Virus record (IMG/VR): IMGVR_UViG_3300045988_068193
Source of the DNA: a virus
Reading direction: 5' to 3' (one strand)
Length of the DNA: 16,671 nt
A program made the translations under genes and the position numbers. Every line of letters begins with the position of its first letter. Position 1 is the first letter of the stretch. Below are positions 1 through 16,586 of the stretch, in pieces. A model generated the notes under the pieces. That model worked only from the letters and a program-made list of their open reading frames with translations, was not told where the DNA came from and searched no databases.

Positions 1-38
1 CCCAGAGGTCCATGGTTCAAATCCATGCCCCGCTACCA
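1..38 (+). tRNA. 3' portion of a tRNA gene, probably tRNA-Met-like. The anticodon and 5' half lie left of the window.
   Basis: The visible parts are: CCCAG (anticodon-stem 3' strand with CCC, as in initiator-type tRNA-Met), AGGTC variable loop, T-arm CATGG-TTCAAAT-CCATG, acceptor 3' strand CCCCGCT, discriminator A and an encoded CCA ending at 38. The copy at attR has no matching 5' acceptor strand upstream, so the intact gene must be the one at attL. Confidence 0.6.
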
Positions 39-55
39 CTTGACCGTCGTTCCCA
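1..55 (+). repeat. attL: direct repeat identical to 16617..16671; its length is limited by the window edges
   Basis: Character-by-character identity of 1..55 with 16617..16671. The repeat contains a tRNA 3' end. Confidence 0.9.
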
Positions 56-366
56 TTATCGGAACGGCGGTTTTTTAATATCTGCTCGGCCTTCATCGGC
101 GTTAAATCGGTCCTTAGCAGCGTCTCAAGACCGACTCCGAAGAAATCGGCGGCGTTGCACATATCCTCAAAGAACCATGTTTGCTTGTTTTGAAGCATCT
201 TTGAGAGAGCCTGAGGTACTTTATCCATACACTCGGCCAGATCCTTCTTCTTCTTGCGAGATACCGCTAAGAGCAAATTAATGTTAGCGACAGCGATTTT
301 TTGCCGCTCTAGTCCAGTACTTGTTTTTCTAAGCATTGTGTTAACCATACCTTCATTATAAACCAT
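1..366 (-). CDS. cI-like XRE-family HTH repressor; the 3' end is open at the window edge and no stop codon is present
   Basis: I translated the minus frame by hand. It is open from 426 down to 1. The product reads MVYNEGMVNTMLRKTSTGLERQKIAVANINLLLAVSRKKKKDLAECMDKVPQALSKMLQNKQTWFFEDMCNAADFFGVGLETLLRTDLTPMKAEQILKNRRSDNGNDGQVVAGHGFEPWTSG... and has a typical HTH_3-like helix pattern. Possible starts are ATG 366, 348 or 336. ATG 348 lies 6 nt after a TATAAT (360..355), which is compatible with a leaderless mRNA. The gene is divergent from a cro-like gene and co-oriented with int. Confidence 0.7.
   Translation of the reverse strand, partial: MVYNEGMVNTMLRKTSTGLERQKIAVANINLLLAVSRKKKKDLAECMDKVPQALSKMLQNKQTWFFEDMCNAADFFGVGLETLLRTDLTPMKAEQILKNRRSDNGNDGQVVAGHGFEPWTSG
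44..76 (+). terminator. Rho-independent terminator of the tRNA gene
   Basis: A 10-bp stem pairs CCGTCGTTCC (44..53) with GGAACGGCGG (61..70), including one G-U pair. The loop is 7 nt and the stem is followed by TTTTTT (71..76). Confidence 0.6.
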
Positions 367-432
367 AGGTTTAGTTGTGACGACACGCGGCAGATTTGAA
401 ATGTCTAAGCACCCGTGCTTTACTGATTAACT
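367..432. promoter_or_regulatory. Divergent genetic-switch region with back-to-back promoters and a candidate operator
   Basis: Plus strand: TTGAAA (396..401), 17-nt spacer, TTTACT (419..424), 8 nt before the GTG at 433. Minus strand: TCGTCA (383..378), 17-nt spacer, TATAAT (360..355). A 12-bp palindrome AGCAC-CC-GTGCT (408..419) sits in the plus-promoter spacer and overlaps the -10. Confidence 0.45.
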
Positions 433-669
433 GTGAGTTTAGCAATCAATGAACAACAAACTATCGCCAAGCAGGTTCGCGGCAAGTTGCGTGCAAATCA
501 CGTCACGCAACGAGAGCTAGCGGACTCTGTGGGAATGAGCGAACAAGCGTTGTCGAACAAGCTTCGCGGCCTGAAGAACTTCACACTGCGTGATGTGTCG
601 CGTATAGCCGACTTCTTCGACGTTTCCACCGATTTCGTGCTCGGCCGTGAGCCATTGGGGGTGAAGTAA
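433..669 (+). CDS. Cro-like XRE-family HTH DNA-binding protein
   Basis: The 78-aa product contains QVRGKLRANHVTQRELADSVGMSEQALSNKLRG...FTLRDVSRIADFFDVSTDFVLG, a classic HTH_3 signature. It has a GTG start and is divergent from the repressor. Confidence 0.75.
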   Translation: MSLAINEQQTIAKQVRGKLRANHVTQRELADSVGMSEQALSNKLRGLKNFTLRDVSRIADFFDVSTDFVLGREPLGVK

Positions 670-744
670 TGGATTGGCACCTTGTTTTGTCTATTACGGC
701 TCTGGTTTTTTCCATTCTGGTTTCGATTTACGTGTCACGGTGAT

Positions 745-1356
745 TCAGATGGTTGGTTGCGGTGATTTTCTGGCGTCTTCGGGATTGTGGTGGAACCTTC
801 GGTGTGCGCTCCATGCACGGAATCGTTCGGCCAATCTGTGCGATGCCTTCCAGTCCTTTTCCTCCCACCATTTGTCGGCGAGTTCCGAAGTGAGGGGTAT
901 CTCTTCGTATCCGCAGCGTCGCAGTCTTGTAGGTGATTTGGTCCAGTGGATGCAGATCCTGGCATCCTCGGGCATGTCATCCGCGCCTTCGGGCGGCCAG
1001 ATGGCTATTTTCACGTCATCGCCGTCTTCGTTGGATATGCGAGGGACCATCGTCCGCTCGCCGATTTTCCAGCTACCGTTTGGGAGTTTTTCCCATGCAT
1101 ATGCGCGGATTATGCAGTTGTGTCCGAACACGCGGACATCGAAAGCGTCCCCATCGCCGTCATTGGCAATCATGGCCTTCCTGACTGGCAAGCGGCCGTG
1201 TTCGTCGGTCAGTGGTGGCGTCGCGTTGCGCAGGCGAGTGACGATGTACGAGTTCATCCATGACGCCTCTGGTCTATGCCGAACCGTTCTACCGAAGGTT
1301 ACGGCCGTCCAACCCAACGAAATTGCGGCGATGATGTCGCTGAAGTTCAGGTGCAT
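745..1356 (-). CDS. Hypothetical protein with an N-terminal membrane anchor; reverse-oriented moron, function unknown
   Basis: The 203-aa ORF has a strong SD (AAGGAAGGAAG) 5 nt upstream of the ATG at 1356. Third codon positions are G/C-enriched. A hydrophobic N-terminal segment reads DIIAAISLGWTAVTF. The overlapping plus-strand ORF 674..1468 is Ser/Cys-rich and looks like a shadow ORF. Confidence 0.6.
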   Translation of the reverse strand: MHLNFSDIIAAISLGWTAVTFGRTVRHRPEASWMNSYIVTRLRNATPPLTDEHGRLPVRKAMIANDGDGDAFDVRVFGHNCIIRAYAWEKLPNGSWKIGERTMVPRISNEDGDDVKIAIWPPEGADDMPEDARICIHWTKSPTRLRRCGYEEIPLTSELADKWWEEKDWKASHRLAERFRAWSAHRRFHHNPEDARKSPQPTI

Positions 1357-1464
1357 TTATTCTTCCTTCCTTCGTTGTTTGAAAGGTTTGGTTTGTGTGA
1401 TTACAAGCCTATCGCTGCGGAGGAAGGAGCCTAACCGTCCATCCATGAATCAAGGAGCAGTGAA

Positions 1465-1701
1465 ATGAGCGTTTTCAATCCGGAATGCGCCAGCAATTAC
1501 TTCCAGGTGCTGGACATCGACCCGTCGGAATGCACCGGCGGCAATCCCTACGCCTTCAAGTGCCGCATCAAGGTGGGCGAACGATCGTTCGATTTCGATG
1601 GCTTGGACATGGGCGACCTTCAAGGGATGAAGGGCGCGATCAACAAGGCGATGACGCACGCTAGGCGTGCCCGTCGTGAATGGGAAGGAGCCCAGGAATG
1701 A
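1465..1701 (+). CDS. Hypothetical early protein (78 aa)
   Basis: A GGAG SD lies 8 nt upstream of the ATG. The ORF is coupled by an ATGA overlap to the next ORF. Confidence 0.6.
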   Translation: MSVFNPECASNYFQVLDIDPSECTGGNPYAFKCRIKVGERSFDFDGLDMGDLQGMKGAINKAMTHARRARREWEGAQE

Positions 1702-1856
1702 GCGTCACAGTCAAACGTGTGGACAGGAAAAGCAGTCAGCGTTTTTACGAGCTGATCGTTGAGACGGAAGAAGGCGTGACGGTGCGCGTTCCGTTCAACG
1801 GTTACGAGCTTGACGATCTTGAGAAACAGATCGACCGATGCTTCAACGAGGATTGA
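1698..1856 (+). CDS. Hypothetical small early protein (52 aa)
   Basis: This ORF is below the ORF-track cutoff. Its ATG at 1698 overlaps the upstream stop (ATGA). The product is MSVTVKRVDRKSSQRFYELIVETEEGVTVRVPFNGYELDDLEKQIDRCFNED. Confidence 0.45.
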   Translation: MSVTVKRVDRKSSQRFYELIVETEEGVTVRVPFNGYELDDLEKQIDRCFNED

Positions 1857-1858
1857 CC

Positions 1859-1975
1859 GTGAAACGTTTCATCAAGATCGTTCTTCTGATTCTGCTCAGC
1901 CCCCTCGTGTTGTTCATGCTGGGGCTGGTGCTCGCGATCGTCCGTCTGGGTGATTTCCTCACCGACGACGACTGA
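1859..1975 (+). CDS. Hypothetical small membrane protein (38 aa)
   Basis: A GTG at 1859 lies 2 nt after the upstream stop. The product VKRFIKIVLLILLSPLVLFMLGLVLAIVRLGDFLTDDD has one clear transmembrane helix. Confidence 0.4.
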   Translation: MKRFIKIVLLILLSPLVLFMLGLVLAIVRLGDFLTDDD

Positions 1976-2412
1976 CGGCATCCGATAACTTCATAGCCCT
2001 TGACCCAGCCGAAGGTCGGTTGCTGGGGAGGCGTGATAAAGCACCCGGCCGCGCCTTGCCCAGCGCGTTACAAACACGCCCGGAATGCCGGGCGGTTACC
2101 ACGGCCCCAGCGGGGAGCTATGCGGGTGTAACAGATCGCTTCACGGCGTCTTGTTCGGGCGCAACTGGGGACCATCGCCGGCATGCGTGCCGGGCTGTAC
2201 AGCGAGACCTTGCGCGCGGCTTCGGCCGCTGACCTATGCGACGGCGCGGCTCCGTTACGAAGCAACCTTGCATGGCGAACCCTAACCCGGAAGACACTTG
2301 AGCGATCTTGTGTTTTCCGGCTTGGGTTCCCCGCTCTAACGCCCACCACCCGAAGGGCACATCATCCACAATCCTTATCCACTTATCCACAATATGAAAC
2401 GAGGTATGAGAC
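1976..2412. other. ORF-free, GC-rich, hairpin-dense intergenic spacer; candidate structured RNA and/or replication origin
   Basis: Only overlapping Arg/Pro-rich ORFs without SD sequences occur here, in several frames. Stable hairpins include 2004..2027, 2077..2094, 2178..2193, GCGGC-TTCG-GCCGC (2216..2229) and an extended stem at 2277..2329. Confidence 0.4.
2362..2391 (+). promoter_or_regulatory. Three tandem DnaA-box-like 9-mers
   Basis: TCATCCACA (2362..2370, 8/9), TTATCCACT (2375..2383, 8/9) and TTATCCACA (2383..2391, 9/9 to the TTATCCACA consensus). All are in the same orientation and end 21 nt upstream of the ATG at 2413. Confidence 0.55.
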
Positions 2413-2754
2413 ATGGGTTATTCGGTCGATTACAAGCCAACAAGCAGACGTGCCAAGAGGACGGTGCCGAAGAACAAGGCACAGCGCACGAAGGACATCA
2501 AGAACGCAATCCGTTGGAACATCGGGCAGTTGGAGCATGACACCATTGGCACCGACTCGGTACAGCGTCCCATGGTCATCGGCATTCTTCGGCTGAACCG
2601 CATCAGTCCGCACGCCGACCCGTCCGGCGATAACACCTTCCAGCAGCTGATCGCCGAGGGTTGGGTGCAGCGCCCGAAGCGTATCGGCGGCGTGCAGTGT
2701 TTCGACCGCGCAGACCTGATTAGATCGTTGAAGGCTTATGCGGGGGTGGCGTGA
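2413..2754 (+). CDS. Hypothetical basic protein (113 aa)
   Basis: A GAGG SD lies 8 nt upstream. The N-terminus is Lys/Arg-rich. The ORF is coupled to the next ORF through a TGATG overlap. Confidence 0.6.
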   Translation: MGYSVDYKPTSRRAKRTVPKNKAQRTKDIKNAIRWNIGQLEHDTIGTDSVQRPMVIGILRLNRISPHADPSGDNTFQQLIAEGWVQRPKRIGGVQCFDRADLIRSLKAYAGVA

Positions 2755-2945
2755 TGAATCCAAGGGCGAAACTGACCACGGCGCAGGCCGCACGGTACCT
2801 GCATAAGTCACAACGGCAGATGGAACGCATGAGGGCGGACGGCACCGGGCCGACGTGGTTCAAAGCGGGCGACGCGATCAACAGTCCGTGCCTGTACGAG
2901 CTGGCCGACCTTGACATGTGGGTGCGTGGGCAGAAGGCGAAGTGA
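2751..2945 (+). CDS. Excisionase/AlpA/MerR-type HTH DNA-binding protein (Xis-like)
   Basis: The product contains LTTAQAARYLHKSQRQMERMRADGTGPTWFKAGD....YELADLDMWV, matching the short excisionase-family HTH_17 pattern. The likely start is the ATG at 2754. Confidence 0.6.
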   Translation: MMNPRAKLTTAQAARYLHKSQRQMERMRADGTGPTWFKAGDAINSPCLYELADLDMWVRGQKAK

Positions 2946-2946
2946 G

Positions 2947-3666
2947 ATGGGGCGCAGGCAGACGATAGACCCGCTGGTGCGGGCGAAGGTCATCGACACA
3001 TGGGGCAACGATTGTTGGCTTGGATTGCCGGGCTGTACCAAGGTCGGCGCCGAGGACGACCATATCGTGCCCTACTCGCATGGCGGCATGGACACCGTGG
3101 CGAACATACGCCGCGCGTGCAAGCACTGCAACGCATCAAGGCAAGACCGCGTCTTGTACGGCTATGGGGCGCGGTTGCACATGGTGATAGTACCGCCAGG
3201 TTCCTGCGACCGTGAGGCCGTGGACTATATCGACGCGCATAAAGCGCCGGGCGACCCGGTGGTGTCGTTCAGCACGTTGGCCACGGCCATGGGCCTGACC
3301 AATCCCAGTCTTGCGTGCAGGCGCGCGGTGGCCATGGCATGGTCGGGCGCGTACCGGCAGTTCGCCACGTCGGCCGAGCCTATCGACGTGTGGCTGACCC
3401 GCACCACCATCAGCAGCAACCGGCATCCTCGGCTGTTGGACGAGTGGATAGCGTTGGACTATGACGTGCAGGTGATAGACCCCGGCTTCGCCGTCGAGTG
3501 GGAGCGCGCGAGGGACGACGCGACCCGACGTCGCGTCAGGCAATGGTACGCGCTGCACTTATCGCAGGCGTTGGTGGACGCGAGGCGTGCCGAACGGCGC
3601 GCGAAGCTCGTTGCCCTTGGCCTTCGCTCCGAGCCGGTGCAGATCGCTTCGCGGCCGAAGTGGTGA
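2947..3666 (+). CDS. HNH endonuclease with a ~170-aa C-terminal extension
   Basis: The HNH motif is CW.G.PGC....EDDHIVPYSHGG.DTVANIRRACKHCNASR. The ATG at 2947 follows the xis-like stop. The gene sits directly upstream of the terminase genes, as in HK97-like cos phages. Confidence 0.8.
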   Translation: MGRRQTIDPLVRAKVIDTWGNDCWLGLPGCTKVGAEDDHIVPYSHGGMDTVANIRRACKHCNASRQDRVLYGYGARLHMVIVPPGSCDREAVDYIDAHKAPGDPVVSFSTLATAMGLTNPSLACRRAVAMAWSGAYRQFATSAEPIDVWLTRTTISSNRHPRLLDEWIALDYDVQVIDPGFAVEWERARDDATRRRVRQWYALHLSQALVDARRAERRAKLVALGLRSEPVQIASRPKW

Positions 3667-3827
3667 GCCTGTTTTTTAAACACGCGGCCGGCCAAAAGAC
3701 CCCGCGCCCAGTTTTTTCTCCCCCTGAACATAAATAAAAAGCCGCAAAACGTTGGAATACCAACGAAATGCGGCGTATCGCTTTCAAAAAACGAAGATAC
3801 ACCATGTTTGTGATTGGAGCAACCGTT

Positions 3828-4139
3828 ATGGCGCTTTTAGCTGGAATGGATGACGACACCGGCCGTATCATCGGCCCGCAGGAACGCACGACAAGGCAGA
3901 TCGTGGACGACCTTAAAGCCAAGCACCCCGAACCCGACCCGATACGCGACGGCCTATGTCAATCCATGTTGTCGTTGGCCGCGAACATCGACGCGCAGAA
4001 CCGTACCGGCAAAGAGATCAGCCGGAACATGGGGCAGTACATAGACGCCCTGTGGAAGATACGCGACATGTACCCGACCGAGACCGTCGCCGACGACGAC
4101 GTGGAAGCCGTATGGAGCGGCGAAGCGTATGAGGATTAG
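3828..4139 (+). CDS. terS: Probable terminase small subunit
   Basis: The call rests on position between HNH and TerL, small size, and a GGAG SD 8 nt upstream of the ATG at 3828. The longer ORF start at 3768 is buried in the hairpin 3741..3774. The ORF overlaps the terL start. Confidence 0.5.
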   Translation: MALLAGMDDDTGRIIGPQERTTRQIVDDLKAKHPEPDPIRDGLCQSMLSLAANIDAQNRTGKEISRNMGQYIDALWKIRDMYPTETVADDDVEAVWSGEAYED

Positions 4140-5571
4140 AGGCGGCACCAAGCGCAACCCCGACCGGCGTACCGACGGCGGCCGGTTGGCCGCTGTTGCG
4201 CGAATGATGGGAACGCCGCTTATCCCTTGGCAACGGTACGTGGCGGACGTGGCGTGTGAGATCGACCCCGACACCGGGAGCTTCTATTACGACACGGTGG
4301 TGGTCAGCACGCCGCGTCAGTGCGGCAAGTCGGCGCTGGTGGACGGCTCCGACACGTACAACGCGAGTCTTGGCCGTCGCCGGCGCATCGCCTACGCGGC
4401 GCAGACCGGCAAGGACGCAGAAGACCACTTCAAGGAATACGCCGAGGCCATGAAGGCGAGTCGGCTGGTGCAGAAGGTGGACAAGTTCCGCTTTAGTAAC
4501 GGCAACATGTCGGTGACTTTCGGCAATGGCAGCACCATCAGCCCCATGGCCATGACCAAGATAGCCGGCCACGGCAAACAGTTCGACAAGGTGACCATAG
4601 ATGAGGCGTTCAGCCTGACCAAGGACGCCGGCGACACCATCATGGACGCCATCGTACCGACCATGAACACGCGACTTAAGCGCACCGGCATTACCGCGCA
4701 ACGGTGGATTACCTCGACCGAGGGCACCGCCGAAAGTACGTACTTCAATACGCTGTTGGACGGGTTGCGCGCCGGCGATGTGCCCGAACGTACCTGTTGG
4801 TTCGACTTCGGCATACCGGCCGACGCCGACCCCGAAGACCTCGAAACGATCATGCTGTACCATCCCGCTGCCGGCTACCTGTGGTACAAGCCCCAATTGC
4901 ATGACTTCCGCGAGGGCTTCGGCGACAACGTGGCCGGGTGGGCGCGTGCCTTCGGCAACCGACGCGACGAAGGAATCACCGACCGCGTGATAGACGAAGC
5001 GACATGGACGGCAACCGCCGTCGCCCCCATCGAACCGGACGCATTGGGCGACCGCCCGGTGGTGTTCGGCGTGGCCGTGGACGTGGACAGCACGCACACC
5101 AGCATATCGGCCGGCATCCTGAACATTGACGGCACCATAACCACGCAACTGATCGAAACACTGGACGGCACCGGGTACGCGCCAACCGAGCTTGTTAGAT
5201 TATGCGCAGCGTATGGCGCTCCGGTGGTGATAGATTCGCGCGGCACCGCCGCCGACCTCGCCGACCGGCTGCATCACATGACCGACCACAACGGCGACCC
5301 CTCGCTATCGTTCGTGGACATGGACGCCGGCGACTACCTGACCACCGGCCAAAGCTATGTCAGCGGCTTGGCCAACAAGGCGATATGGCACGCCGCCGAC
5401 CCCGACCTTGACGCAAGCGCGGCCAACTCGGCACGCAAATGGGCCGGCGACGCATGGCGCGTGAGCCGACGCGGTTCCACCGGCCTAACCAGCCCCTTGG
5501 AATCGTGCATGTTGGCCGCATGGGGCGCAGCCCACCGCCCCGAAGAGTCGGGGCCGCTGCAAATATTCTGA
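4129..5571 (+). CDS. terL: Terminase large subunit
   Basis: The 480-aa product has a Walker A-like VSTPRQCGKS, a Walker B-like VTIDEA, and a C-terminal nuclease-type region. Its position is canonical. Confidence 0.9.
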   Translation: MRIRGGTKRNPDRRTDGGRLAAVARMMGTPLIPWQRYVADVACEIDPDTGSFYYDTVVVSTPRQCGKSALVDGSDTYNASLGRRRRIAYAAQTGKDAEDHFKEYAEAMKASRLVQKVDKFRFSNGNMSVTFGNGSTISPMAMTKIAGHGKQFDKVTIDEAFSLTKDAGDTIMDAIVPTMNTRLKRTGITAQRWITSTEGTAESTYFNTLLDGLRAGDVPERTCWFDFGIPADADPEDLETIMLYHPAAGYLWYKPQLHDFREGFGDNVAGWARAFGNRRDEGITDRVIDEATWTATAVAPIEPDALGDRPVVFGVAVDVDSTHTSISAGILNIDGTITTQLIETLDGTGYAPTELVRLCAAYGAPVVIDSRGTAADLADRLHHMTDHNGDPSLSFVDMDAGDYLTTGQSYVSGLANKAIWHAADPDLDASAANSARKWAGDAWRVSRRGSTGLTSPLESCMLAAWGAAHRPEESGPLQIF

Positions 5572-5576
5572 CCCTT

Positions 5577-5616
5577 TTGGCGGCACTTGGCGGTACTTGG
5601 CGGCACTTGGCGGCAC
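5577..5616 (+). repeat. Four tandem 10-bp repeats, TTGGCGG(C/T)AC
   Basis: Read directly: 5577..5586, 5587..5596 (C to T variant), 5597..5606 and 5607..5616. They lie in the 75-nt gap between the terL stop and the portal start. Confidence 0.9.
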
Positions 5617-5646
5617 GGTGCTGGACGGGGCCGGCCTGCGGGCAGC

Positions 5647-6789
5647 ATGATTGTCGGCATGACTGACCGATTGACATTGTGGGAGCGGGTGAAACTCGCG
5701 GGCCGGGTATTGACCCGTAGCGCGGTGGACGACATGCCCGAGGGCATCCGCCCGCCGTCGCGCGTCGCGGATTGCGACCCGTTGTCGCTGTCCACGGTTT
5801 TCCGTGGCGTGCAGGTGCTTCAGACCGCCATCACCGGTTTGCCGATTCACGAAATGCGCGGCGGCGTGAAGCTCGACACGGTGTCGCCGCTCGTGTTGCA
5901 GCCGGACGTGAACCGTAGCCGTCGTGACTTTTTGGCCGACCTTGTGGCAAGCATGGTGTTGGATGGCAACGCATTCGTAAGGCTGGTGTCGTATGCGGGC
6001 GACGTGGTGTCGTGCGAGGTGCTGCCCCCGCACCTTGTTGTCGTGTCCGACGACGGACAAGACCCGGCCGCCCCGCGCCTGCGCTACAGCTACTTGGGGA
6101 CGGATTACACGCCCGATCAGATCGTGCATCTGAAGTTTCTGAACGTGCCCGGCAGGCTGCGTGGTCTTGGCCCGATCAGCGCGGCGCGCGAAGAGGTGGA
6201 AGGCGCGAAGATGGCCCGCGACTACAAGGCACGCTTCTACACCGACAGCTCGAACCTTAAGGGCTATTTGAAGACCGACAAGAAGGTTACGCCGGAGTAC
6301 GCGAAGCAGGCGAAGACCGATTGGAAGGCGTCGGGCACGGCCGCCGACATCAAGGTGTTGGGCGAGAACCTCACCTACGTTCCGCTCGACATGAAGCCGG
6401 CCGATTTGCAGTTTTTGGAGACGCAGAAATTCGATACAACGCAGATCGCCCGACTGTTGGGCATCCCCGCGTCAATCATGCTTGCCGCCGTCGATGGCAG
6501 CAACCTCACCTACAGCAACATCGAGCAATCGTGGATTGAGTTCGCCGACTATACGTTGGCCGCCTACGCGGGCGAGATTGAAGAGTTGTTCAATCGCCTG
6601 TTGCCGCGCGGCCGGACGGCAGCGTTCGACTGGGATTCGAGCCGTCGCGCCGACATGGCGGACCGGTTCAACGCCTACCAGACCGCCATAGCGTCCGGTT
6701 GGATGACGGTGGACGAGATCAGGGCGCGCGAGGCCCTGCCGCCATTGGATACGACAACAACAACCGAAGGGAGCAACGATGAAGCGTGA
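5647..6789 (+). CDS. Portal protein (HK97 family)
   Basis: The ~380-aa product follows TerL and shows a portal-like sequence pattern (..GNAFVRL.., ..FLETQKFDTTQIARLLGIPASIM..). The start is uncertain: ATG 5647 or 5659. The track's TTG start at 5587 lies inside the repeats. Confidence 0.85.
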   Translation: MIVGMTDRLTLWERVKLAGRVLTRSAVDDMPEGIRPPSRVADCDPLSLSTVFRGVQVLQTAITGLPIHEMRGGVKLDTVSPLVLQPDVNRSRRDFLADLVASMVLDGNAFVRLVSYAGDVVSCEVLPPHLVVVSDDGQDPAAPRLRYSYLGTDYTPDQIVHLKFLNVPGRLRGLGPISAAREEVEGAKMARDYKARFYTDSSNLKGYLKTDKKVTPEYAKQAKTDWKASGTAADIKVLGENLTYVPLDMKPADLQFLETQKFDTTQIARLLGIPASIMLAAVDGSNLTYSNIEQSWIEFADYTLAAYAGEIEELFNRLLPRGRTAAFDWDSSRRADMADRFNAYQTAIASGWMTVDEIRAREALPPLDTTTTTEGSNDEA

Positions 6790-8347
6790 AATAGGGTTCA
6801 GGGGCGTGTGCCTGCGCTCGGCCGACGACGGCGACGGGCGCACCTTGGAAGGCGTGGCCGTGCCATATGGGCAGATCATCGACACATGGGACGGTGCCGA
6901 GACCTTCGACCCTGACTGCCGCTTCGACGACATCGAATCCGCGAAGCTGTGCTACCAGCACGGCGAACTGATCGGCCGCATCACCGCCGCCGAATCACGG
7001 GAAGACGGCCTGCACATCACCGCCAGGATAAGCGACACGCAGCTTGGCCGCGACGTGGTGAACCTCTTGAAGGACGGCGCTCTGGACTCATTGTCGGTGG
7101 GATTCGTCCCGATCGAGGACGAACGCGACAAGGCCGGGATAACCCATCGCAGGCGCGTCAGGCTGTTGGAAACAAGCGTGGTGAGCTGGCCCGCATACGA
7201 GGCCGCGAAAATCACCGGACAGCGAAGCGAGACCCTGACCGAAGAACCAACCGACAACAAGGAAAGCGAGGACACGAAAGTGGACAAGGAACTGGAAGAG
7301 ACGCTGGACGCCATCAAGGACGAACAGCGCAGTTTGAAGGCCGCGTTGGCCAAGGGCGGCACCACCGAACCGCCGAAACAGATCGGCAGCGAGTACCGCA
7401 CCGCCGGCGACTACCTGCAGGCGCTCTATCGCGGCGACGAAACGGCGGTGCAGTTGATGCACGAATGCCGCGACCTGATCGCCACGGGCGACACCGGCAA
7501 CAAGGTGGCATGGATTGCGGATGAACTGCGCCTGATCGAACAGCGGCGCAAGGTCACCAACCTGCTGACCCACGACACGCTGCCAGACAAGGGCATGACC
7601 ATGGAATACAACGTGGTCAGCACCGACACCACCACGGTGGGCAAGCAGGCCGGCGAGGGCGACGCGCTCCAGTTCGGCAAGGTGACCTTCGGCACCAAGA
7701 GCGTGACCATCGACACCTACGGCGGCTACACCACCCTGTCGCGTCAGGTGATCGAACGCTCGACCACGCCAATGCTGAACACGGCTCTTGCCGCCCTGCG
7801 CAACGCCTACGCGAAGGCCACCGAAACGGCCGTGCGCACCTACCTGTACGACACCATCGCCGCACAGCGCGACGCATCGACCGACGCGAACAAGATCGAC
7901 GCGCCGGCCGCGTTGGCCGCAATGACCATCGACCAGTGGGCCGGCCTCATCATGGACGCCGCCGAGTTGGCCGACGACCGTAACGTGAACCTCACCCGCT
8001 TGGGAGTCAGCAAGGATGTCATGGCCGCCCTGATCGCCCTGAAGGACTCGGGCAGTCGTTTCTTCGACCTGTCCGGCGACGGTAGCGATACGTTGGGCGA
8101 CTTCGATTTGACCGGCATCGCCGGCCGTTTCCTGCGCCTTCCCGTGCAGATGCTGCCCAACGCGCCCGAAGGCACCGCGTGCTTCATCGACCCCGAGTCG
8201 GTGACCGTGTGGGAATCGGGCGGCCCGACCCAGCTCAGCGACGGCGACCCGACCAAGCTCACCGAAAACTATTCAGTGTACGGATACCTGGCCGTGGCGG
8301 CAACACAGCCGCTCGGTCTTATCCCCGTCAAGTTCGCCACGGCCTGA
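6779..8347 (+). CDS. Prohead protease - scaffold-like linker - HK97-type major capsid protein, as a single fused ORF
   Basis: The N-terminal ~150 aa resemble an HK97 prohead protease (LEGVAVPYG...H.....G.......DSLSVGF....). An acidic coiled-coil linker follows (EEPTDNKESEDTKVDKELEETLDAIKDEQRSLKAAL). The ~320-aa C-terminal region is capsid-like. A GAAGGGAG SD precedes the ATG at 6779. Confidence 0.8.
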   Translation: MKREIGFRGVCLRSADDGDGRTLEGVAVPYGQIIDTWDGAETFDPDCRFDDIESAKLCYQHGELIGRITAAESREDGLHITARISDTQLGRDVVNLLKDGALDSLSVGFVPIEDERDKAGITHRRRVRLLETSVVSWPAYEAAKITGQRSETLTEEPTDNKESEDTKVDKELEETLDAIKDEQRSLKAALAKGGTTEPPKQIGSEYRTAGDYLQALYRGDETAVQLMHECRDLIATGDTGNKVAWIADELRLIEQRRKVTNLLTHDTLPDKGMTMEYNVVSTDTTTVGKQAGEGDALQFGKVTFGTKSVTIDTYGGYTTLSRQVIERSTTPMLNTALAALRNAYAKATETAVRTYLYDTIAAQRDASTDANKIDAPAALAAMTIDQWAGLIMDAAELADDRNVNLTRLGVSKDVMAALIALKDSGSRFFDLSGDGSDTLGDFDLTGIAGRFLRLPVQMLPNAPEGTACFIDPESVTVWESGGPTQLSDGDPTKLTENYSVYGYLAVAATQPLGLIPVKFATA

Positions 8348-8349
8348 CC

Positions 8350-8682
8350 ATGACGGACAACTGGACTGACTACGAGCCGGCGGTACGCGATGAGATCGGC
8401 GTGCCGACCGGCGACAACGACCGCGTGCAGCGGGCGACCATCGCCGCCATGGGGTACGTGGACGGTGCCATAGGCGGCTACACGGTGTCGAACACCGTGC
8501 GCGCCGACTGCATCACGTCATGTGCCGCCGACCTGTACAACGCCCGCGACGCCCGATTGGGCGTGATGGACGTGGGCGACGGCACGGTGGAACCATACCG
8601 CATCAGCACCGACCCTCTCAGATCGGTATGGCCGAAACTGAACGCGGTGGGCGTGCCAACGGGCGGGCTGGTGATCGCATGA
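8350..8682 (+). CDS. Head-tail connector (gp6-like) protein
   Basis: 110 aa, immediately after the capsid gene. Size and position are typical of this class. Confidence 0.55.
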   Translation: MTDNWTDYEPAVRDEIGVPTGDNDRVQRATIAAMGYVDGAIGGYTVSNTVRADCITSCAADLYNARDARLGVMDVGDGTVEPYRISTDPLRSVWPKLNAVGVPTGGLVIA

Positions 8683-9047
8683 ACATCCAGGAACAACGCG
8701 CCGCCCTCATGGACACGCTCGCCGACATGCTCGACGGGCTCGTGAGCAGCATCAGCCTCGACGCCCAACTGGTACGCCCCGCCGCCGGCAAGGTGGCCGT
8801 GTTCATCGAACCTCCGACCGTGGAATGGCCGTCATGGGGCCCGCCGGAACCGGTCTGGACGTTGGACGTCATCGCCGGCACGCCGGCCACGCAGCCATCC
8901 GCAGTCGATGACATCCTCACAGCGCTCGACCGGCTCGCCGAACGTGGCCTGAACATCCAGAAGGCCACGCCCGCGACTTGGAACCTCGCAGGAGCCGGCA
9001 CGCTGGCGGCCTACCAGGTCGTGCTGAACGCTCTGGAAACCGAATAA
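8679..9047 (+). CDS. Head-tail joining or tail-terminator-like structural protein
   Basis: 122 aa, ATGA-coupled to the upstream gene. The call is by position only. Confidence 0.4.
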   Translation: MNIQEQRAALMDTLADMLDGLVSSISLDAQLVRPAAGKVAVFIEPPTVEWPSWGPPEPVWTLDVIAGTPATQPSAVDDILTALDRLAERGLNIQKATPATWNLAGAGTLAAYQVVLNALETE

Positions 9048-9067
9048 GACAAGGAAAGGAAAAAATC

Positions 9068-9481
9068 ATGGCTGGAAAGATCCGCACGCTCGGACCAGGC
9101 ATCTTCAAAATCACCGACACCGAAAACGGCAGGGACTTCAGCGCCGACCTGACCAAGGCGCAGCTAAACCCGTCGAACAGCAGCGACGACCCGACCACCT
9201 ACCTCGACGGATCAGAGGAGACGAACACCACGACAACATGGACGTTCGAGGGCACCGTGGGCGACGACTTCAGCGAGGACGGTCTGGCCGTCTGGCTCTT
9301 CGACCACAAGGGCGAGACGCTGCCGGCCCAGTTCGTCCCGAACAATACCGGCAAGATCCAGTGGACCTTCAACGTCACCATCGCGCCAATCGCCATCGGC
9401 GGCGACGTCAAATCGAAGAACACGAACGATCTGAGCTTCGCCGTCACGAACGTCGCCCACGCACCGTACACGGGCAAGTGA
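9068..9481 (+). CDS. Probable major tail protein
   Basis: 137 aa with a strong SD (AAGGAAAGGA). The product is Thr/Asn-rich and beta-type. It lies upstream of the chaperone and tape measure genes. Confidence 0.55.
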   Translation: MAGKIRTLGPGIFKITDTENGRDFSADLTKAQLNPSNSSDDPTTYLDGSEETNTTTTWTFEGTVGDDFSEDGLAVWLFDHKGETLPAQFVPNNTGKIQWTFNVTIAPIAIGGDVKSKNTNDLSFAVTNVAHAPYTGK

Positions 9482-9487
9482 TGAGTG

Positions 9488-9871
9488 ATGGCTGACAAGG
9501 CATTGATGGTCGTCGGCCAGAAACGCTTCGTTCAGACGATGCGCAAGGCCGGCGCGGACATGGACGACCTGAAGGAAGTGAACCGCGCGGCAGCGCAGAT
9601 CGCACTGCCCGCCGTCCGCAACCTCGCCCCACGAGGCAAAACCGGCCGGCTGGCCGGCAGCCTGCGTGTCGGAGCGACGAAACGCGCCGGCGTCATCCGC
9701 GCCGGCCGCAAGGCCGTGCCCTACGCAGGACCAGTCAACTACGGGTGGCCCGCCCGCCACATCAAGCCACGTCTCTTCGTCAACAACGGCGTCGCCTCCA
9801 CCGAGAGCCAATGGCAAAAGGTCTACAAGGACTTCATCGACAAGACACTGAAGCAAGTGAAAGGAAAATAA
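9488..9871 (+). CDS. HK97 gp10-family head-tail/tail completion protein
   Basis: The pattern ...APRGKTGRLAGSLRVG....AGVIRAG....YAGPVNYG... is typical of the HK97 gp10 family. An alternative GTG start is at 9485. Confidence 0.6.
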   Translation: MADKALMVVGQKRFVQTMRKAGADMDDLKEVNRAAAQIALPAVRNLAPRGKTGRLAGSLRVGATKRAGVIRAGRKAVPYAGPVNYGWPARHIKPRLFVNNGVASTESQWQKVYKDFIDKTLKQVKGK

Positions 9872-10143
9872 TGGCAACCACGAGAATCACCTACACGGAC
9901 GGTACCAGCGAGACCGTGCCGATCACGATGCGCGCGACATGCAAGGCCGAGGCGCACGCCATCGACGTGGGCTGGGGGCCAATCACCCAGTCACCCGTCC
10001 GTTCCGGCGCATACGCGGCCTACGCGGCCCTGCGCATGGCCGGCCGCAATCTGCCAGACTTCGAGCATTGGCTGGACACCGTGGCCTCATTCGACCTCGC
10101 TGCTGCGAAGGAGGAACCGGAAGAGGGAAACCCTACGGACTAG
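9871..10143 (+). CDS. Tail assembly chaperone (G-like)
   Basis: 90 aa, directly upstream of the tape measure gene, with a TAATG overlap. It carries a slippery heptamer near its 3' end. Confidence 0.7.
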   Translation: MATTRITYTDGTSETVPITMRATCKAEAHAIDVGWGPITQSPVRSGAYAAYAALRMAGRNLPDFEHWLDTVASFDLAAAKEEPEEGNPTD

Positions 10144-10298
10144 CCGCGTGGCCACAAGACTCGCTCGGCCGTCTCTCGTTCCTCCTGGCCAACCGTTTCG
10201 GCGGCACGCCATGGCAGTGGAGGAACGAGGCCGACGAATTGGATTGGGGCACCGGACTGGCCGAACTGCTCAAGGAAGCCGAATCACGGAAGGAGTGA
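9871..10298 (+). CDS. Tail assembly chaperone -1 frameshift product (GT-like)
   Basis: After a -1 slip at 10125..10131, the reading frame continues as GKPYGLAAWPQDSLGRLSFLLANRFGGTPWQWRNEADELDWGTGLAELLKEAESRKE. It ends 3 nt before the tape measure start. Confidence 0.6.
10125..10131 (+). promoter_or_regulatory. Programmed -1 ribosomal frameshift slippery heptamer G GGA AAC
   Basis: This is a canonical X XXY YYZ motif in the zero frame of 9871..10143, 10 nt before its stop. The -1 frame is open to 10298. Confidence 0.65.
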
Positions 10299-10301
10299 AA
10301 C

Positions 10302-12170
10302 GTGGCGCACAGCGCGATCATGAGCGTGCGCATCACCGGCAACGCCGATGATGCCGTCAAGGCGTTCGAGAAGACCACTACGAAGGCGGCCGCTTTCGGC
10401 AGCGCCATCGGCGGATTGGCCGTCAAGGGCGTGACCGCGCTGTGGGACACGGTAAAGGGCTTCGCCGGCGATGTGGTGAACATGTCGGACAGCACCGACA
10501 AGTTCATGAACACCATGAGCTTCGCCGGCATCGACACCAAAGCCGTGCAGGCAGCCGCGAAGGAAACCCGCAAATACGCCGACGACACCGTGTACGGGCT
10601 CGATGACATCCAGAACACCACCGCGCAGCTCGCGGCAAACGGCATCGGCAACTACATGGAACTGACCGAGGCGGCCGGCAACCTCAACGCGGTGGCCGGA
10701 GGCAACGCCGACAGTTTCAAGAGCGTCGCGATGATGCTCACCCAGACGGCCGGCGCGGGAAAATTGACCACGGAGAACTGGAACCAGCTTGCCGACGCCA
10801 TTCCGGGCGCGTCCGGCAAACTCCAGGAGGCGCTGCTGAAGAACGGCGCGTATACGGGCAACTTCCGCGACGCCATGTCCAAGGGCGAGATCACCGCAGA
10901 CGAGTTCAACAAGGCGCTCATGGACCTCGGCATGACCGACGTGGCGAAACAGGCCGCGACATCGACCAGCACCATCGAGGGAGCCATGGGAAACCTCGAA
11001 GCCGCCGTGACCGGCGGTCTGACCGACGCGTTCAACCTGTTCAAACCGGCCGTGACGGGCGGCATCAACGCCGCATCGGCCGCCGTGACCAGCCTCGCTA
11101 CCACCGGTGTCCAGGGATTGCAGACGTTCTTCGGCCAGGTCAAGGACACCGGAGCGTTCACCTCGCTGCAGTCGGCCGCGCAGTCGGTCGGCGGTGGACT
11201 CCAATCACTGTGGACCGGCATCATGGCCGTCGTGAACGCGATGACCGGAGGACAGCCCGCCGGAACCGCGTTCGGCAACGCGCTCAACACCGTCGCAACC
11301 GCCGCGCAGACGGTCGGCGGCTGGCTGAAGACCGCAGGCAACTGGATCAGCCAGAATCTGGATCTTGTGACCCCGCTCGTCGCCGCGATCGGCGGCGCAG
11401 TGGCAGCCGTCACCGCCGTGACCACCGCAATGCAGGTCGCCGCCGTCGCTCAGGCGGTGCTCAACGCGGTCATGGCCGCGAACCCGATCATGCTGGTCAT
11501 CACGCTCATCGCCGCGCTCACGGCCGTACTCACCTACTTCTTTACCTGCACCAACACCGGCCGGGCCGTGTGGTCGAGCTTCACGAGTTTCCTGGGCTCC
11601 TGCGTGCAGGGCATCACCGGTTTCTTCTCCGGCCTCGGCTCCACCATCGTCGGCATCTTCAGCTCGGCGGCGAACGGTGCTAGGAACGCGTGGAACGGCG
11701 TGGTCGGCTGGTTCCGAGGCCTGCCGGGCACCATTGGCGGTTTCTTCTCCAACGCCGGCAGCATCCTCGTCAACGCAGGCGCAAGCATCATCAACGGCTT
11801 CTGGGACGGCCTCAAAGGCGCCTGGAACAACGTGACCGGCTGGATCAGCGGCATCGGCGACTGGATCAAGGCCCACAAAGGCCCGATCAGCTACGACCGT
11901 CGCCTGCTCATCCCCGCCGGCCAGGCCATCATGACCGGCTTCGCCCAGGGCCTCAACACCGGGTTCGACAGCAACGTCGAAACCGCCATCGGCCGCGCCA
12001 ACCGCAGACTAGCGGCCATGCCACTCAACCTCTCCGCCCAAGGCAACACGGCCACGCCAGCCGTGATCAACACCTGGAACGTGGAAATCAACGGCGAGGT
12101 CATCGACAAGGACGGCACCGCCAAGGCCATCAAACGGCTCCTGGCCGACTACGACGCAAGGAGGTCATGA
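10302..12170 (+). CDS. Tape measure protein
   Basis: 622 aa, Ala/Gly/Thr-rich, with a central hydrophobic segment. It is the largest tail gene and follows the chaperones. A GGAAGGAG SD precedes the GTG at 10302. Confidence 0.9.
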   Translation: MAHSAIMSVRITGNADDAVKAFEKTTTKAAAFGSAIGGLAVKGVTALWDTVKGFAGDVVNMSDSTDKFMNTMSFAGIDTKAVQAAAKETRKYADDTVYGLDDIQNTTAQLAANGIGNYMELTEAAGNLNAVAGGNADSFKSVAMMLTQTAGAGKLTTENWNQLADAIPGASGKLQEALLKNGAYTGNFRDAMSKGEITADEFNKALMDLGMTDVAKQAATSTSTIEGAMGNLEAAVTGGLTDAFNLFKPAVTGGINAASAAVTSLATTGVQGLQTFFGQVKDTGAFTSLQSAAQSVGGGLQSLWTGIMAVVNAMTGGQPAGTAFGNALNTVATAAQTVGGWLKTAGNWISQNLDLVTPLVAAIGGAVAAVTAVTTAMQVAAVAQAVLNAVMAANPIMLVITLIAALTAVLTYFFTCTNTGRAVWSSFTSFLGSCVQGITGFFSGLGSTIVGIFSSAANGARNAWNGVVGWFRGLPGTIGGFFSNAGSILVNAGASIINGFWDGLKGAWNNVTGWISGIGDWIKAHKGPISYDRRLLIPAGQAIMTGFAQGLNTGFDSNVETAIGRANRRLAAMPLNLSAQGNTATPAVINTWNVEINGEVIDKDGTAKAIKRLLADYDARRS

Positions 12171-12175
12171 GATAG

Positions 12176-13714
12176 ATGCAGCAATGCTTCATGTTCATCG
12201 ACACAGGCAACGGCACCGGCTGGACACCGGTGAACGATTCCACCAAGGATGTAGCGGCCCTGGACTCTTTCACCATCGATTGGGGAAGTGACGGCATCGA
12301 CGAACAACCCGAACCTGCCGTGATGTCGTTCACCCTCCGCGACCGCACCGGACGGCTCGCAGGCCAGGCATTGACACTGGCCGGCATGAAAGTGGTCGTC
12401 CAATTCTCCAACCAGCCTCGATGGATGGACCTGACGCCAGCGATGGGCTGCTGGCGCGATCTGCGCATCCCCATCGACTCGCTCCACAAGATGTATTCGC
12501 CAGACTCGCCAGACTCGCCAGACTCGCCAGACTCGCCAGACTCGCCATCCGAAACAATGTTCGCCGGCAGCGTGTCCACCGGCGGCAGCATCGAACCGGC
12601 CAGCGACGGCGGATGGCTGCTCAAACTCTCCGCCACATCGAGGATGGCCATATGGAAACGCCTGCAATCCCAAGGACCGACAGACACGGCCGCGAAATGG
12701 AACGGCGCGCACTGGATAGGCACGCCATCCGCACGCCTCAAGGAGATGAACCGCAGGGCCTCGGCGCAGGGAGCGCCGGAAGCCCAACTGGACGGGCTCG
12801 CCCTGCCGTCAAGCGTCGCACCATACACGCCATCCGACCACCCATCGCAGCTCGACCTGCTGCACCGGCTCACCGTCGGGCCACGACTCCCTCAATGGCA
12901 CGAAGTCTACGACGGCGCGGCATCCACCATCAGGCCGCTGTTCCTCGCCGACCCAATCGCCGTGCATCTGTCAACCGATGGCCGACTCAACGTCCTCACC
13001 GACGGAGAGACACGATACGCACTCTCGGCGGCCGACATCGAGGCATCGACGGATCTGAGCATCACCGAACCTTTGACACAGGTCGTCATCAACGCGAAAC
13101 GCGTCAAATCGGACAACGGCAAGCTCTCTTTCGACGACGTGGAGATCACGATGGGAGACCAGGACCGTCTGCCACCACAATTGACCGTCATGCAGAAGAG
13201 CCTCACCGTCGATTCCGACATGCTCGCCGTGGACGACTCGGGCGGTGTATGGAACAGCGGCGGCACCTCGAACGTCAGCGCCACGGACCGCGCCAACATC
13301 GCGCAATGGCTCGAATCGCACGACCTGCGCATGGTACCGGAGACAGTGACGTTCAACAGCACGCGAATCGACCCGGCACGCCGGCCATGGCTGTACAAGG
13401 CAAGCCCATCCGGCCCATTCATCATCGTCAAGGCCAAATCGTCGGCCCTGACCGGCTCAGACGGCCGACCGTCCTTCACCGGCCCCATCACGACCATCGG
13501 CGGGACGCTCTCATACCGGTGGCGTTCGGGCAAGCCCACACTCACCCAGGAAGCGACGCTGGCCGCGCTCCGGCCGCTGCTGACGGAACGGATCACATGG
13601 GCCGACCTGCCCACCCTCAGCTGGCAGCAGCTCGACCTGCACATCTGCGACCTCTCGATGATCCAGATCATCGACACTTCTTCGCCCACCGCCGAAAAGG
13701 AAGGAACACAATGA
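12176..13714 (+). CDS. Minor tail protein (distal tail / Dit-like)
   Basis: 512 aa, immediately after the tape measure gene. It contains an internal (SPD)n repeat. Confidence 0.6.
   Translation: MQQCFMFIDTGNGTGWTPVNDSTKDVAALDSFTIDWGSDGIDEQPEPAVMSFTLRDRTGRLAGQALTLAGMKVVVQFSNQPRWMDLTPAMGCWRDLRIPIDSLHKMYSPDSPDSPDSPDSPDSPSETMFAGSVSTGGSIEPASDGGWLLKLSATSRMAIWKRLQSQGPTDTAAKWNGAHWIGTPSARLKEMNRRASAQGAPEAQLDGLALPSSVAPYTPSDHPSQLDLLHRLTVGPRLPQWHEVYDGAASTIRPLFLADPIAVHLSTDGRLNVLTDGETRYALSAADIEASTDLSITEPLTQVVINAKRVKSDNGKLSFDDVEITMGDQDRLPPQLTVMQKSLTVDSDMLAVDDSGGVWNSGGTSNVSATDRANIAQWLESHDLRMVPETVTFNSTRIDPARRPWLYKASPSGPFIIVKAKSSALTGSDGRPSFTGPITTIGGTLSYRWRSGKPTLTQEATLAALRPLLTERITWADLPTLSWQQLDLHICDLSMIQIIDTSSPTAEKEGTQ
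12497..12547 (+). repeat. Perfect 9-bp tandem repeat TCGCCAGAC, ~5.7 copies, in frame
   Basis: Read directly. It encodes SPDSPDSPDSPDSPDSP within 12176..13714. Confidence 0.95.
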
Positions 13715-14319
13715 CAGCAACAACACCCATCTACGGGCTCTCATATCCGGAAGGCTCCGACCTCGTGTCATCTGCGGCGGGGTCGTTCAAGGCCATGGCC
13801 GACACCTTCGAGACCGCGCTGGACACCGTCGACAGACGCTCCACCCCAGCCGGTGCGACACCTGTGATCGCCACCACGCTCGAATCGCTGAAGGCGCAGA
13901 CGGCCACGGTCGGCCAGACCGGCTTCGTCACCTCGGACGGCGACAACACCGGCCCGTACATCTGGGACGGGACCAGCTGGCATCACGCACACTGGTACAC
14001 CGCCGATGACAAAGCCAAAACAACGCTCGTCAACAAATCAGGCTGGAAATGCGAATACATGATGAAACATGGATTCGTTTACGTCACGGTTAATCTTTCG
14101 GACAGTGGCACCAAAGGATGGAGCGAAAGCCAAATGCCAGGCACACTCCCCGAAGAAGCACGACCGCCGCTCGAACTGGATTTCGCACCGATGTGCTCCA
14201 ACAACAATTCAATCGGTGTATTCATCGTCAAACCCACCGGAGTCATCGTCTACTCGCGTCGCGGAGGCGGGCAAATCTCCGACAATCGTTATGCAACCAT
14301 GATGTGGCCGGCCGCATGA
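13711..14319 (+). CDS. Minor tail protein / candidate receptor-binding protein
   Basis: 202 aa, ATGA-coupled, and the last tail gene before the lysis cassette. The N-terminus PIYGLSYPEGSDL resembles conserved actinophage minor-tail N-termini. The C-terminal half is visibly AT-richer. Confidence 0.5.
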   Translation: MTATTPIYGLSYPEGSDLVSSAAGSFKAMADTFETALDTVDRRSTPAGATPVIATTLESLKAQTATVGQTGFVTSDGDNTGPYIWDGTSWHHAHWYTADDKAKTTLVNKSGWKCEYMMKHGFVYVTVNLSDSGTKGWSESQMPGTLPEEARPPLELDFAPMCSNNNSIGVFIVKPTGVIVYSRRGGGQISDNRYATMMWPAA

Positions 14320-14543
14320 CGGATCTCATCATCGCCATCGTCGGCGCGGTCGGCGCGGTCGTCGGCGCACTGGTCTCCACCCTCTCGGCCGCCGCCAAGA
14401 ACAAGATGGAAGCCTACAGGCTCGCACAGAAGATGCAGGCCGACAACCAACGCCTCTGGCAATGGAACCGGCAACTCATCGACCACATCTACCGCCGCGC
14501 CCCACCACCACCGCCGGAACCACCTGAAGACCTTTTCAACTAA
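14316..14543 (+). CDS. Small membrane protein (holin-like or lysis accessory)
   Basis: 75 aa with an N-terminal transmembrane helix (LIIAIVGAVGAVVGALVSTL) and a C-terminal PPPPPEPPE tail. It is ATGA-coupled and lies directly upstream of the endolysin. Confidence 0.5.
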   Translation: MTDLIIAIVGAVGAVVGALVSTLSAAAKNKMEAYRLAQKMQADNQRLWQWNRQLIDHIYRRAPPPPPEPPEDLFN

Positions 14544-14556
14544 GAACGGAGCCAAC

Positions 14557-16525: not shown

Positions 16526-16560
16526 GATTCATCATGCACCCCTAGCTTTAAGCGACTAAA

Positions 16561-16580
16561 CTGAGCTTGGATAAGCTCAG
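16561..16580. repeat. Perfect 8-bp stem / 4-nt loop hairpin between int and attR
   Basis: CTGAGCTT-GGAT-AAGCTCAG, read directly. Confidence 0.7.
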
Positions 16581-16586
16581 AAGCCC

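Follow-up and report, generated by a model that had tools for sequence, protein, structure and literature searches.

Site-specific recombination may itself decide between lysis and lysogeny. Such integration-dependent immunity, a minimal genetic switch, has been shown experimentally in the mycobacteriophage BPs (PMC3694055, PMC4557955). In BPs, Brujita and Charlie it resides in a cassette of three genes, with the repressor gene and that of the integrase (int) directed leftward and cro rightward, and the phage attachment site (attP), corresponding to the 3' end of a tRNA gene, lies in the 3' part of the repressor gene. In its viral form the repressor carries a C-terminal tag, and the prophage form is truncated. 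In Bifidobacterium breve, Mavrich et al. (2018; Sci Rep 8:12772, PMC6109161) described two prophages of about 18 kb, Bb423phi2 and 689b-1, that occupy a tRNA-Met gene beside metA; int lies at one end of the prophage, the repressor gene at the opposite end. The att common core is 39 bp, and reconstruction in silico gave viral repressors with 18 extra C-terminal residues, including ssrA-like tags, that are lost on integration (PMC6109161). The same source gives the Gordonia Cluster CW group as nearest relatives by shared gene families, and according to the papers it cites (PMC5559632, PMC4929511, as cited in PMC6109161) that group and other actinobacteriophages are predicted to use the same system. 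The DNA considered here, IMG/VR virus record IMGVR_UViG_3300045988_068193 (16,671 nucleotides (nt), the whole of which we call the window), contains a repressor gene with attP within its 3' part and, to judge from its layout and att sequences, is another member of the Bb423phi2/689b-1 group.

The first-pass annotation of the window, made from its letters alone, recognized the layout of BPs and Brujita, with attP in the repressor open reading frame (ORF), int co-oriented and a cro-like gene divergent. That layout is borne out: in the circular genome the cassette consists of the repressor gene (366 to 16548), int (16525 to 15698) and cro (433-669), about 1.6 kb in total. The annotation also knew of no precedent at a tRNA-Met-like site in a Bifidobacterium-like host, but the report on Bb423phi2 and 689b-1 (PMC6109161) is one. 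Because the concept was published in 2018 for bifidoprophages at tRNA-Met, the present finding is a confirmation and not a discovery. Its own additions are the direct observation of the excised form, the breadth over several types of junction, codon-level evidence for selection of a terminal Leu-Ala-Ala (LAA), and a long palindrome.

The window is a complete circular genome of 16,616 bp in the excised state, without bounding attL and attR sites, and the phage is a small temperate Bifidobacterium siphophage. Its first 55 nt (1-55) recur exactly at its end (16617-16671), and these ends had been taken for attL and attR of a lysogen. That reading is rejected on two counts. A human gut metagenome assembled by MEGAHIT (k127) yielded a contig of 16,743 nt (L136) that matches the window throughout with 100% identity, is circularly permuted, has a terminal overlap of 127 nt and contains the 55-mer only once. 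Moreover, in lysogens the identity at the junction ends after 36-37 nt, as described below. The two assemblies agree in unit size (16,743 - 127 = 16,671 - 55 = 16,616), and the best explanation for the window's terminal repeat is that a circular assembly overlaps itself there; 55 is a common assembler k-mer size. The exact joined sequence of P arm, core and repressor flank is found in three IMG/VR contigs (L011-L013), which likewise speaks against a lysogen. Compared with IMG/VR, the window found only relatives of 88-92% identity, and its positions 1-2000, compared by megablast, had no match in the GenBank phage collection.

Because the window is a circular excised genome, the repressor ORF is closed by wrap-around. 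Its main part (1-366, minus strand) comprises 122 sense codons from 366 with no stop down to position 1, as the annotation had noticed, in a region where stops are dense in both remaining minus frames. As also claimed, it crosses the tRNA terminator, a hairpin with a T-run at 42-77. It then continues from 16616 for 22 codons, DTRGPRFKSMGLLSLSKLSLVA, to a TAA at 16550-16548; this 3' extension (16548-16616, minus strand) exists only in the excised form. The wrapped ORF (366 to 1, then 16616 to 16548) encodes 144 amino acids (aa), ...EPWTSG-DTRGPRFKSMGLLSLSKLSLVA, with the end ...KLSLVA, and its TAA lies 22 nt ahead of the int ATG on the same strand.

Integrated copies, found by looking up the cro-like protein, have a different end. 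In the lysogens L001, L002, L003, L005, L007 and L009 the ORF ends ...EPWTSG-L-stop, and its TGA stop comes from the anticodon loop CTCATAA, where it is U33-C34-A35 read in reverse complement. This is exactly the prophage end, ...EPWTSGL then TGA, that had been predicted from the window before the flanking DNA was seen, and the C-terminus of the repressor does depend on the state of the phage: 144 aa excised, 123 aa integrated, a difference of 21 residues. The two forms also differ in where they occur. The prophage form (P0054) is on 279 contigs, the longest of 514 kb, and the viral form (P0055) is on 8-10 contigs, the longest of 16.7 kb; in the protein collection the exact 144-aa form is confined to phage-sized contigs. 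Among homologues, forms that end in LAA, LVA or LTA lie on contigs of at most 30 kb; the contigs reach 167 kb for those that end ...TSGL and 623 kb for the other truncated junction forms. In some homologues (P0011, P0013, P0018, P0014, P0031 and P0062/65/75), ...EPWTSG is followed by a short tail of another kind (SP, SRVVS, YDCFI, LIR) or by a long unrelated one, and in L007 the sequence past the TGA differs. Integration may in these cases have taken place at another tRNA copy, at a secondary site or at a tandem junction.

The common core of attP (1-38, plus strand) is identical to the 3' part of an initiator-type tRNA-Met(CAT), spanning the 3' strand of the anticodon stem, the variable loop, the T-arm, the 3' strand of the acceptor stem and CCA. 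The same 38 nt begin the second copy of the 55-mer. Their minus strand codes for ...VVAGHGFEPWTSG of the repressor, codons ~110-122 of the 144. The annotation's att core of 55 nt has to be shortened accordingly: only 38 nt are tRNA, and the other 17 are the 5' arm of a phage-borne intrinsic terminator for the reconstituted tRNA (42-77, plus strand; 12-bp stem, 7-nt loop, T-run), which the repressor ORF reads antisense as KNRRSDNGNDGQ. The full tRNA-Met(CAT) was found in lysogen L001, a 1.24-Mb contig of GCA_020526665.1 with the gene order HTS/metA, tRNA-Met(CAT), window repressor, and the identical terminator sequence follows the tRNA there. In this tRNA, C1 stands opposite U72 and the anticodon stem has three G-C pairs, which on our own reading would be initiator features.

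The position of the crossover may be narrowed. In five lysogen junctions that carry the window's integrase (L121, L123, L127, L131 and L132), identity to attP stops after ...CGCTAC(C), that is, after 36-37 nt, and host DNA follows. The crossover is probably at the T-loop or on its 3' side; phage-specific alleles at core position 13 remain on the int side in lysogens. The site itself is widespread: the 51-nt stretch from anticodon to CCA is found exactly in 67 species-representative contigs, nearly all from Bifidobacterium or Bifidobacteriaceae, and in at least eight of these other ORFs of the helix-turn-helix (HTH) type run into the same anticodon-loop stop. The att sequences match those in Table 3 of PMC6109161. 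On the host side of the int-proximal junction (L121-L132, L143-L152) a variable island separates the prophage from a conserved GlgE gene, with cargo that depends on the contig: proteins of 684 aa and 138 aa, one of 311 aa, or a thiamine pyrophosphate (TPP) enzyme with Mem_trans and a coenzyme A (CoA)-transferase.

The repressor is, on the strength of profiles and a structure model, a Cro/C1-type (XRE) HTH domain followed by a predicted disordered tail. The annotation had called it cI-like. Its homologues, a sequence profile and the structure model uphold the HTH domain, while the protein itself has no match when compared directly with Pfam and NCBIfam, and its best PHROG match is weak (E = 7.7e-4). 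Among 53 homologues, however, several carry HTH_3, HTH_26 or DUF739 (8-10 of the 21 relatives examined with Pfam), a profile built from the 21 relatives matches the HTH protein 3bs3 in the PDB (E=8e-7), and the protein cluster to which the repressor belongs includes a named XRE-family regulator, KFI54813.1 from B. catenulatum DSM 16992. In the AlphaFold (AF2) model, numbered from the ATG at 336, the predicted local distance difference test (pLDDT) score is above 90 for residues 4-90 and below 50 for residues 92-134. Foldseek's best matches to the model were the DNA-binding domains of SinR (SinR-N; template modeling (TM) score 0.81), P22 c2 (0.79), DdrO and lambda cI, with TM scores on the target of at most 0.84. 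Family, profile and structure searches gave no peptidase or other C-terminal domain, and the disordered tail takes in everything encoded by the terminator, by the att core and by the P-arm extension. The start is ambiguous among ATG codons at 366, 348 and 336, and a variant considered below, L008, lacks the first. A promoter-like site at 355-383 on the minus strand (-35 TCGTCA, 17-nt spacer, -10 TATAAT at 360-355; 10 of 12 positions matched) is weak, about one match of that quality being expected by chance in the stretch; from this one consensus match, a leaderless start at ATG 348 may be proposed, which would give 138 aa in the viral and 117 aa in the prophage form.

The part of the repressor found only in the excised form resembles a degradation tag. 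In the window the terminal codons (16551-16559, minus strand) specify L-V-A, an ssrA-like tag end, and those of close relatives specify L-A-A; the relatives end in LAA or LTA. Homologues with diverse HTH domains (down to 31-45% identity) have the tRNA-encoded segment ...LVAGHGFEPWTSG in common, and after it come tails of several types: DTRGPRFKSMGLLSLSKLSLAA, with variants ending LVA or ELILTA; YPRGPRSKSMPRLILSLAA (P0003-5); LLPRGPKVQIHEATPLSLILAA; NVVAQRSTVQIHEARLFDFILAA; and, in the L118 lineage, 40 unrelated residues that still end YVLAA. The DNA was read for five junction types, four of them with full-length integrases that are mutually 52-59% identical. The P arms of the five are very different, yet the L-A-A end is retained. 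It is encoded, stop included, as TTA GCC GCT TAA, TTA GCC GCG TGA, TTA GCG GCG TGA, TTA GCG GCA TAG, CTA GCG GCG TAA or TTG GCG GCG TAG, and the Leu-Val-Ala of the window as TTA GTC GCT TAA. That L-A-A is kept despite synonymous changes and three different stop codons is as expected from selection on the peptide end. A transfer-messenger RNA (tmRNA) tag was recovered as well: AKSNRTEFALAA, ending ...FALAA, is encoded by tmRNA genes whose 3' end is of the B. breve type.

We put the probability that the window phage has an integration-dependent immunity switch at roughly 0.75. In the free genome the repressor ORF runs 22 codons into the P arm, to the end ...KLSLVA. This long form would be recognized at its ssrA-like end by ClpXP-type proteases and would not accumulate, so that infection would be lytic unless integration occurs. 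After recombination by Int with the tRNA gene the ORF runs instead into the anticodon loop and ends in ...EPWTSGL, which would remove the tag. The truncated prophage form would then be stable, would repress the divergent cro/early promoter and would confer immunity, and an int-null phage would be obligately lytic. The steps concerning degradation, stability, immunity and the int-null phage are drawn from the BPs paradigm (PMC3694055, PMC4557955).

Other constraints may act on the same DNA, as attP contains a palindrome. An inverted copy of the variable-loop/T-arm segment of the tRNA lies in the P arm (16587-16612) and pairs with 16618-16643 (the equivalent of 2-27) to form 26 bp, 96% complementary, around a 5-nt centre. 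Four of the five junction types have the palindrome, with loops that vary from 3 to 11 nt, and beside the window it is seen in L011-L013, L115-L117 and L120-L132; it is not present in the L118 lineage, nor in the attP of BPs. Because it is read in different frames (RGPRFKSMG, PRGPKVQIHEA, STVQIHEA), it is conserved as nucleic acid. One of its positions was compared in 19 sampled loci and is paired as T/A in 10, G/C in one and A/T in one; the remaining seven are mismatched, and in most of these the core arm bears the host allele. The predicted RNA fold of the region has a free energy of -83 kcal/mol (z = -7.7). The palindrome may be an accessory site for Int, an mRNA hairpin or a relic. A second, small perfect hairpin, CTGAGCTT-GGAT-AAGCTCAG (16561-16580), lies inside the tail-coding segment. 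ARAGORN called a 96-nt 'tRNA-Gln' at 16559-16654 (and at L124 2858-2967), which is an artefact in which the palindrome is joined to the partial 3' half of tRNA-Met, and Rfam, at gathering thresholds, gave no match in the window.

Perhaps the overlap of attP and repressor gene is incidental: the core would lie in a dispensable, disordered end of the protein, both forms would be equally stable and active, and integration would play no role in the decision. The tail is indeed disordered in the AF2 model, the segment derived from the tRNA is constrained by the tRNA sequence and not by the protein, and 22 more open codons are not improbable by chance (we estimate ~0.35 at uniform codon use). Furthermore, both forms of the BPs repressor bind DNA similarly (PMC4557955). 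An incidental overlap would leave to chance, however, that five junction types, even the one with the unrelated L118 tail, arrive at L-A-A by way of synonymous codons and all the stops, that the tail end matches that of the recovered tmRNA tag (ALAA), and that tagged and untagged forms are divided between phage-sized and chromosome-sized contigs. We therefore consider it unlikely. A more radical doubt is whether the ORF encodes the immunity repressor at all, rather than some other small HTH regulator, or whether it is expressed. One might entertain it in view of the failed direct searches, the marginal PHROG match and the uncertain start codon. Yet the 53 homologues with their HTH_3 and HTH_26 members, the profile match to a solved HTH protein and the confidently modeled helical domain, like those of P22 c2, SinR and lambda cI, all speak for a repressor, as do the canonical place of the gene, divergent from the cro-like gene and beside int, the names given to its relatives by their sources (XRE regulators) and the persistence of 144 open codons in DNA of 42-50% G+C. 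This alternative thus seems very improbable.

The palindrome raises the question of whether integration acts mainly at the level of nucleic acid, through the 26-bp hairpin, with the peptide tag secondary. The repressor mRNA of the free genome has the core arm and the inverted copy, followed by int, and after integration a single arm stays with the repressor. Conceivable effects of the hairpin are attenuation of read-through into int, a block to translation, or cutting by RNase III to give a non-stop message; or the inverted copy might be an accessory Int-binding site. The near-perfect complementarity in junction types that differ in loop and frame, the paired alleles at the variable position, the stability of the fold and the lack of such a palindrome in BPs attP would all fit. 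On the other hand, L118 has the same layout and an LAA end without any palindrome, the variable position is mismatched in seven of the 19 loci, and cleavage, attenuation and Int binding are no more than candidate functions. As a replacement for the tag model, then, this proposal has little probability, and it is compatible with that model rather than exclusive of it. A combined version is also conceivable, though doubtful: integration would reset two signals, the tag and the split palindrome, and if a second phage entered at the tRNA-proximal junction, the resident repressor would acquire the newcomer's tagged tail, disarming resident immunity. Many heteroimmune phages do have the same core inside their repressor genes, and the arrangement in L124 and L145, described below, is one chromosomal case.

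The preferred reading, an integration-dependent switch that operates through a degradation tag, has several observations to contend with. The window's own tail ends in LVA and those of its relatives in LAA; from work with E. coli, LVA too would be a strong ClpXP tag. What ties the tmRNA loci to Bifidobacterium is their match, over 28 nt, with the att core of B. breve, not the annotation of genomes. Constraints of the palindrome, not of the peptide, could explain part of the conservation of the tail, though not the terminal LAA of L118, which lacks the palindrome. Int has no obvious tag at its end (RLI, LAG or LAV in the lineages read), whereas the Int of BPs is tagged. The mycobacterial three-gene switches do without Xis, and the window has a candidate in the 64-aa HTH_17 protein, which from its sequence could be an excisionase (recombination directionality factor), an early regulator being another possibility. 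Lastly, for Bifidobacterium we infer stability, immunity and ClpXP dependence throughout from sequence.

Set beside the described systems, the window is most like Bb423phi2 and 689b-1, with which it shares the tRNA-Met site beside metA, a small genome (~16-18 kb), a longer, tagged viral repressor and the phage allele CCTTGG in the int-side copy of att, seen here in lysogens too. It differs in that the excised circle is seen directly and not reconstructed, in a tail of 21 additional residues with an LVA end, as against 18, and in a genome of 16.6 kb rather than 18.2 kb; the tail type YPRGPRSKSMPRLILSLAA (P0003-5) is the one that fits the 18 residues. With BPs, Brujita and Charlie the window shares the three-gene cassette, the place of attP and the two forms of the repressor. 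The antisense T-arm is even read in the same frame as in BPs (BPs ...EGFEPP..., window ...HGFEPW...). In BPs, however, rep and int overlap, where those of the window are 22 nt apart; Int has 398 aa and a tag, as against 275 aa and no obvious tag; the repressor tail is 33 aa long and ends ...DKAS, unlike the near-canonical LAA or LVA here; and attP has no long palindrome, in contrast to the 26 bp that cross the boundary of core and P arm in the window. The likeness to the BPs-group repressors is that of the HTH fold; no sequence homology beyond it is detectable, no pairwise comparison having been made. The Gordonia Cluster CW phages, likened here by description, also belong to the small temperate siphophages and carry attP inside the repressor gene, and their hosts and att sites differ. 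Lambda CI and Cro offer the familiar pair of divergent HTH repressor and cro with the Cro/C1 fold, whereas the window shows neither an S24 peptidase/dimerization domain at the C-terminus of the repressor nor homologues of cII and cIII, has attP within the repressor gene, and would have the activity of its repressor decided by integration and not by transcription alone.

If the switch operates as proposed, then the mycobacterial paradigm extends, at the level of sequence, to a major commensal genus and to a phage group that is very common in the human gut. Within that group many repressor specificities go with one common att/tag module, and the module may be of practical use to Bifidobacterium genetics as a ready-made combination of integration and degron.

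Several variants bear on the cassette. L115 (Logan SRR29934091, 15,881 nt) is 99% identical to the window and has attP and the tagged repressor intact, and it has lost nearly all of int between two GGCGGCCG repeats (at 5440-5548); under the switch model it therefore could not lysogenize. In L008 (500-540; P0071) the palindrome lacks 38 nt between its two CCATGG motifs and the left part of the core is lost, so that the repressor ends ...EPWGF*, untagged. P0071 occurs on six contigs, the longest of 16,708 nt. The notion that L008 represents the true attP was dismissed, the 38-nt deletion being a variant and not the norm. In L124 (2553-2978), identical to L145 (9553-9978; GCA_003437945.1, a 336-kb contig), a chromosomal tandem, a different, orphan HTH repressor stands directly upstream of a window-type int and bears the window-type tail ...KLSLVA. 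It adjoins genes for a BrnT toxin, a 75-aa protein and a 757-aa protein. From this arrangement, super-integration at the common att core may re-tag a resident repressor.

The integrase of the window (15698-16525, minus strand; 275 aa) is a tyrosine recombinase (Pfam Phage_integrase, 1e-18), XerC/XerD-like and aligned over the full length of the model. It has two domains and no extra N-terminal domain for arm binding, and it ends ...AAVRLI; the ends in three other lineages are ...TLAG, ...GLAV and ...TLAG, hydrophobic and not LAA-like. In the assembly collection, 5,866 indexed blocks contain the exact protein. The cro-like gene, with an HTH_3 domain (433-669, plus strand), encodes 78 aa from a GTG and is divergent from the repressor gene. 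Between the two lies a candidate operator, the perfect palindrome AAGCAC-CC-GTGCTT (407-420), present in the genome as a single copy and not statistically significant; this intergenic region yielded no further repeats. The 64-aa protein mentioned above (2751-2945, plus strand) scores 26.8 bits with HTH_17 against a cut-off of 27 and has no NCBIfam match, and no homologue of cII or cIII was seen in the window.

Between cro and the early operon, and opposed to the early genes, lies an ORF of 203 aa (745-1356, minus strand) with no family match. In relatives its slot holds genes of 101 and 87 aa or of 80 aa instead, as in a variable, moron-like slot. Further on is a GC-rich non-coding gap of 437 nt (1976-2412), which folds no better than shuffled sequences (z = -1.8). 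At its end (2355-2396) stands a cluster of DnaA-box-like 9-mers, TTATCCACT, TTATCCACA and ATCCACAAT, which may be the replication origin. The junction of the terminase and portal genes bears about five tandem copies of the 10-nt TTGGCGGCAC (5577-5631), and the calls of the portal start vary among relatives (361-385 aa). A tandem 9-nt repeat, GACTCGCCA, occurs at 12494-12547 within the gene for a 512-aa tail protein (12176-13714).

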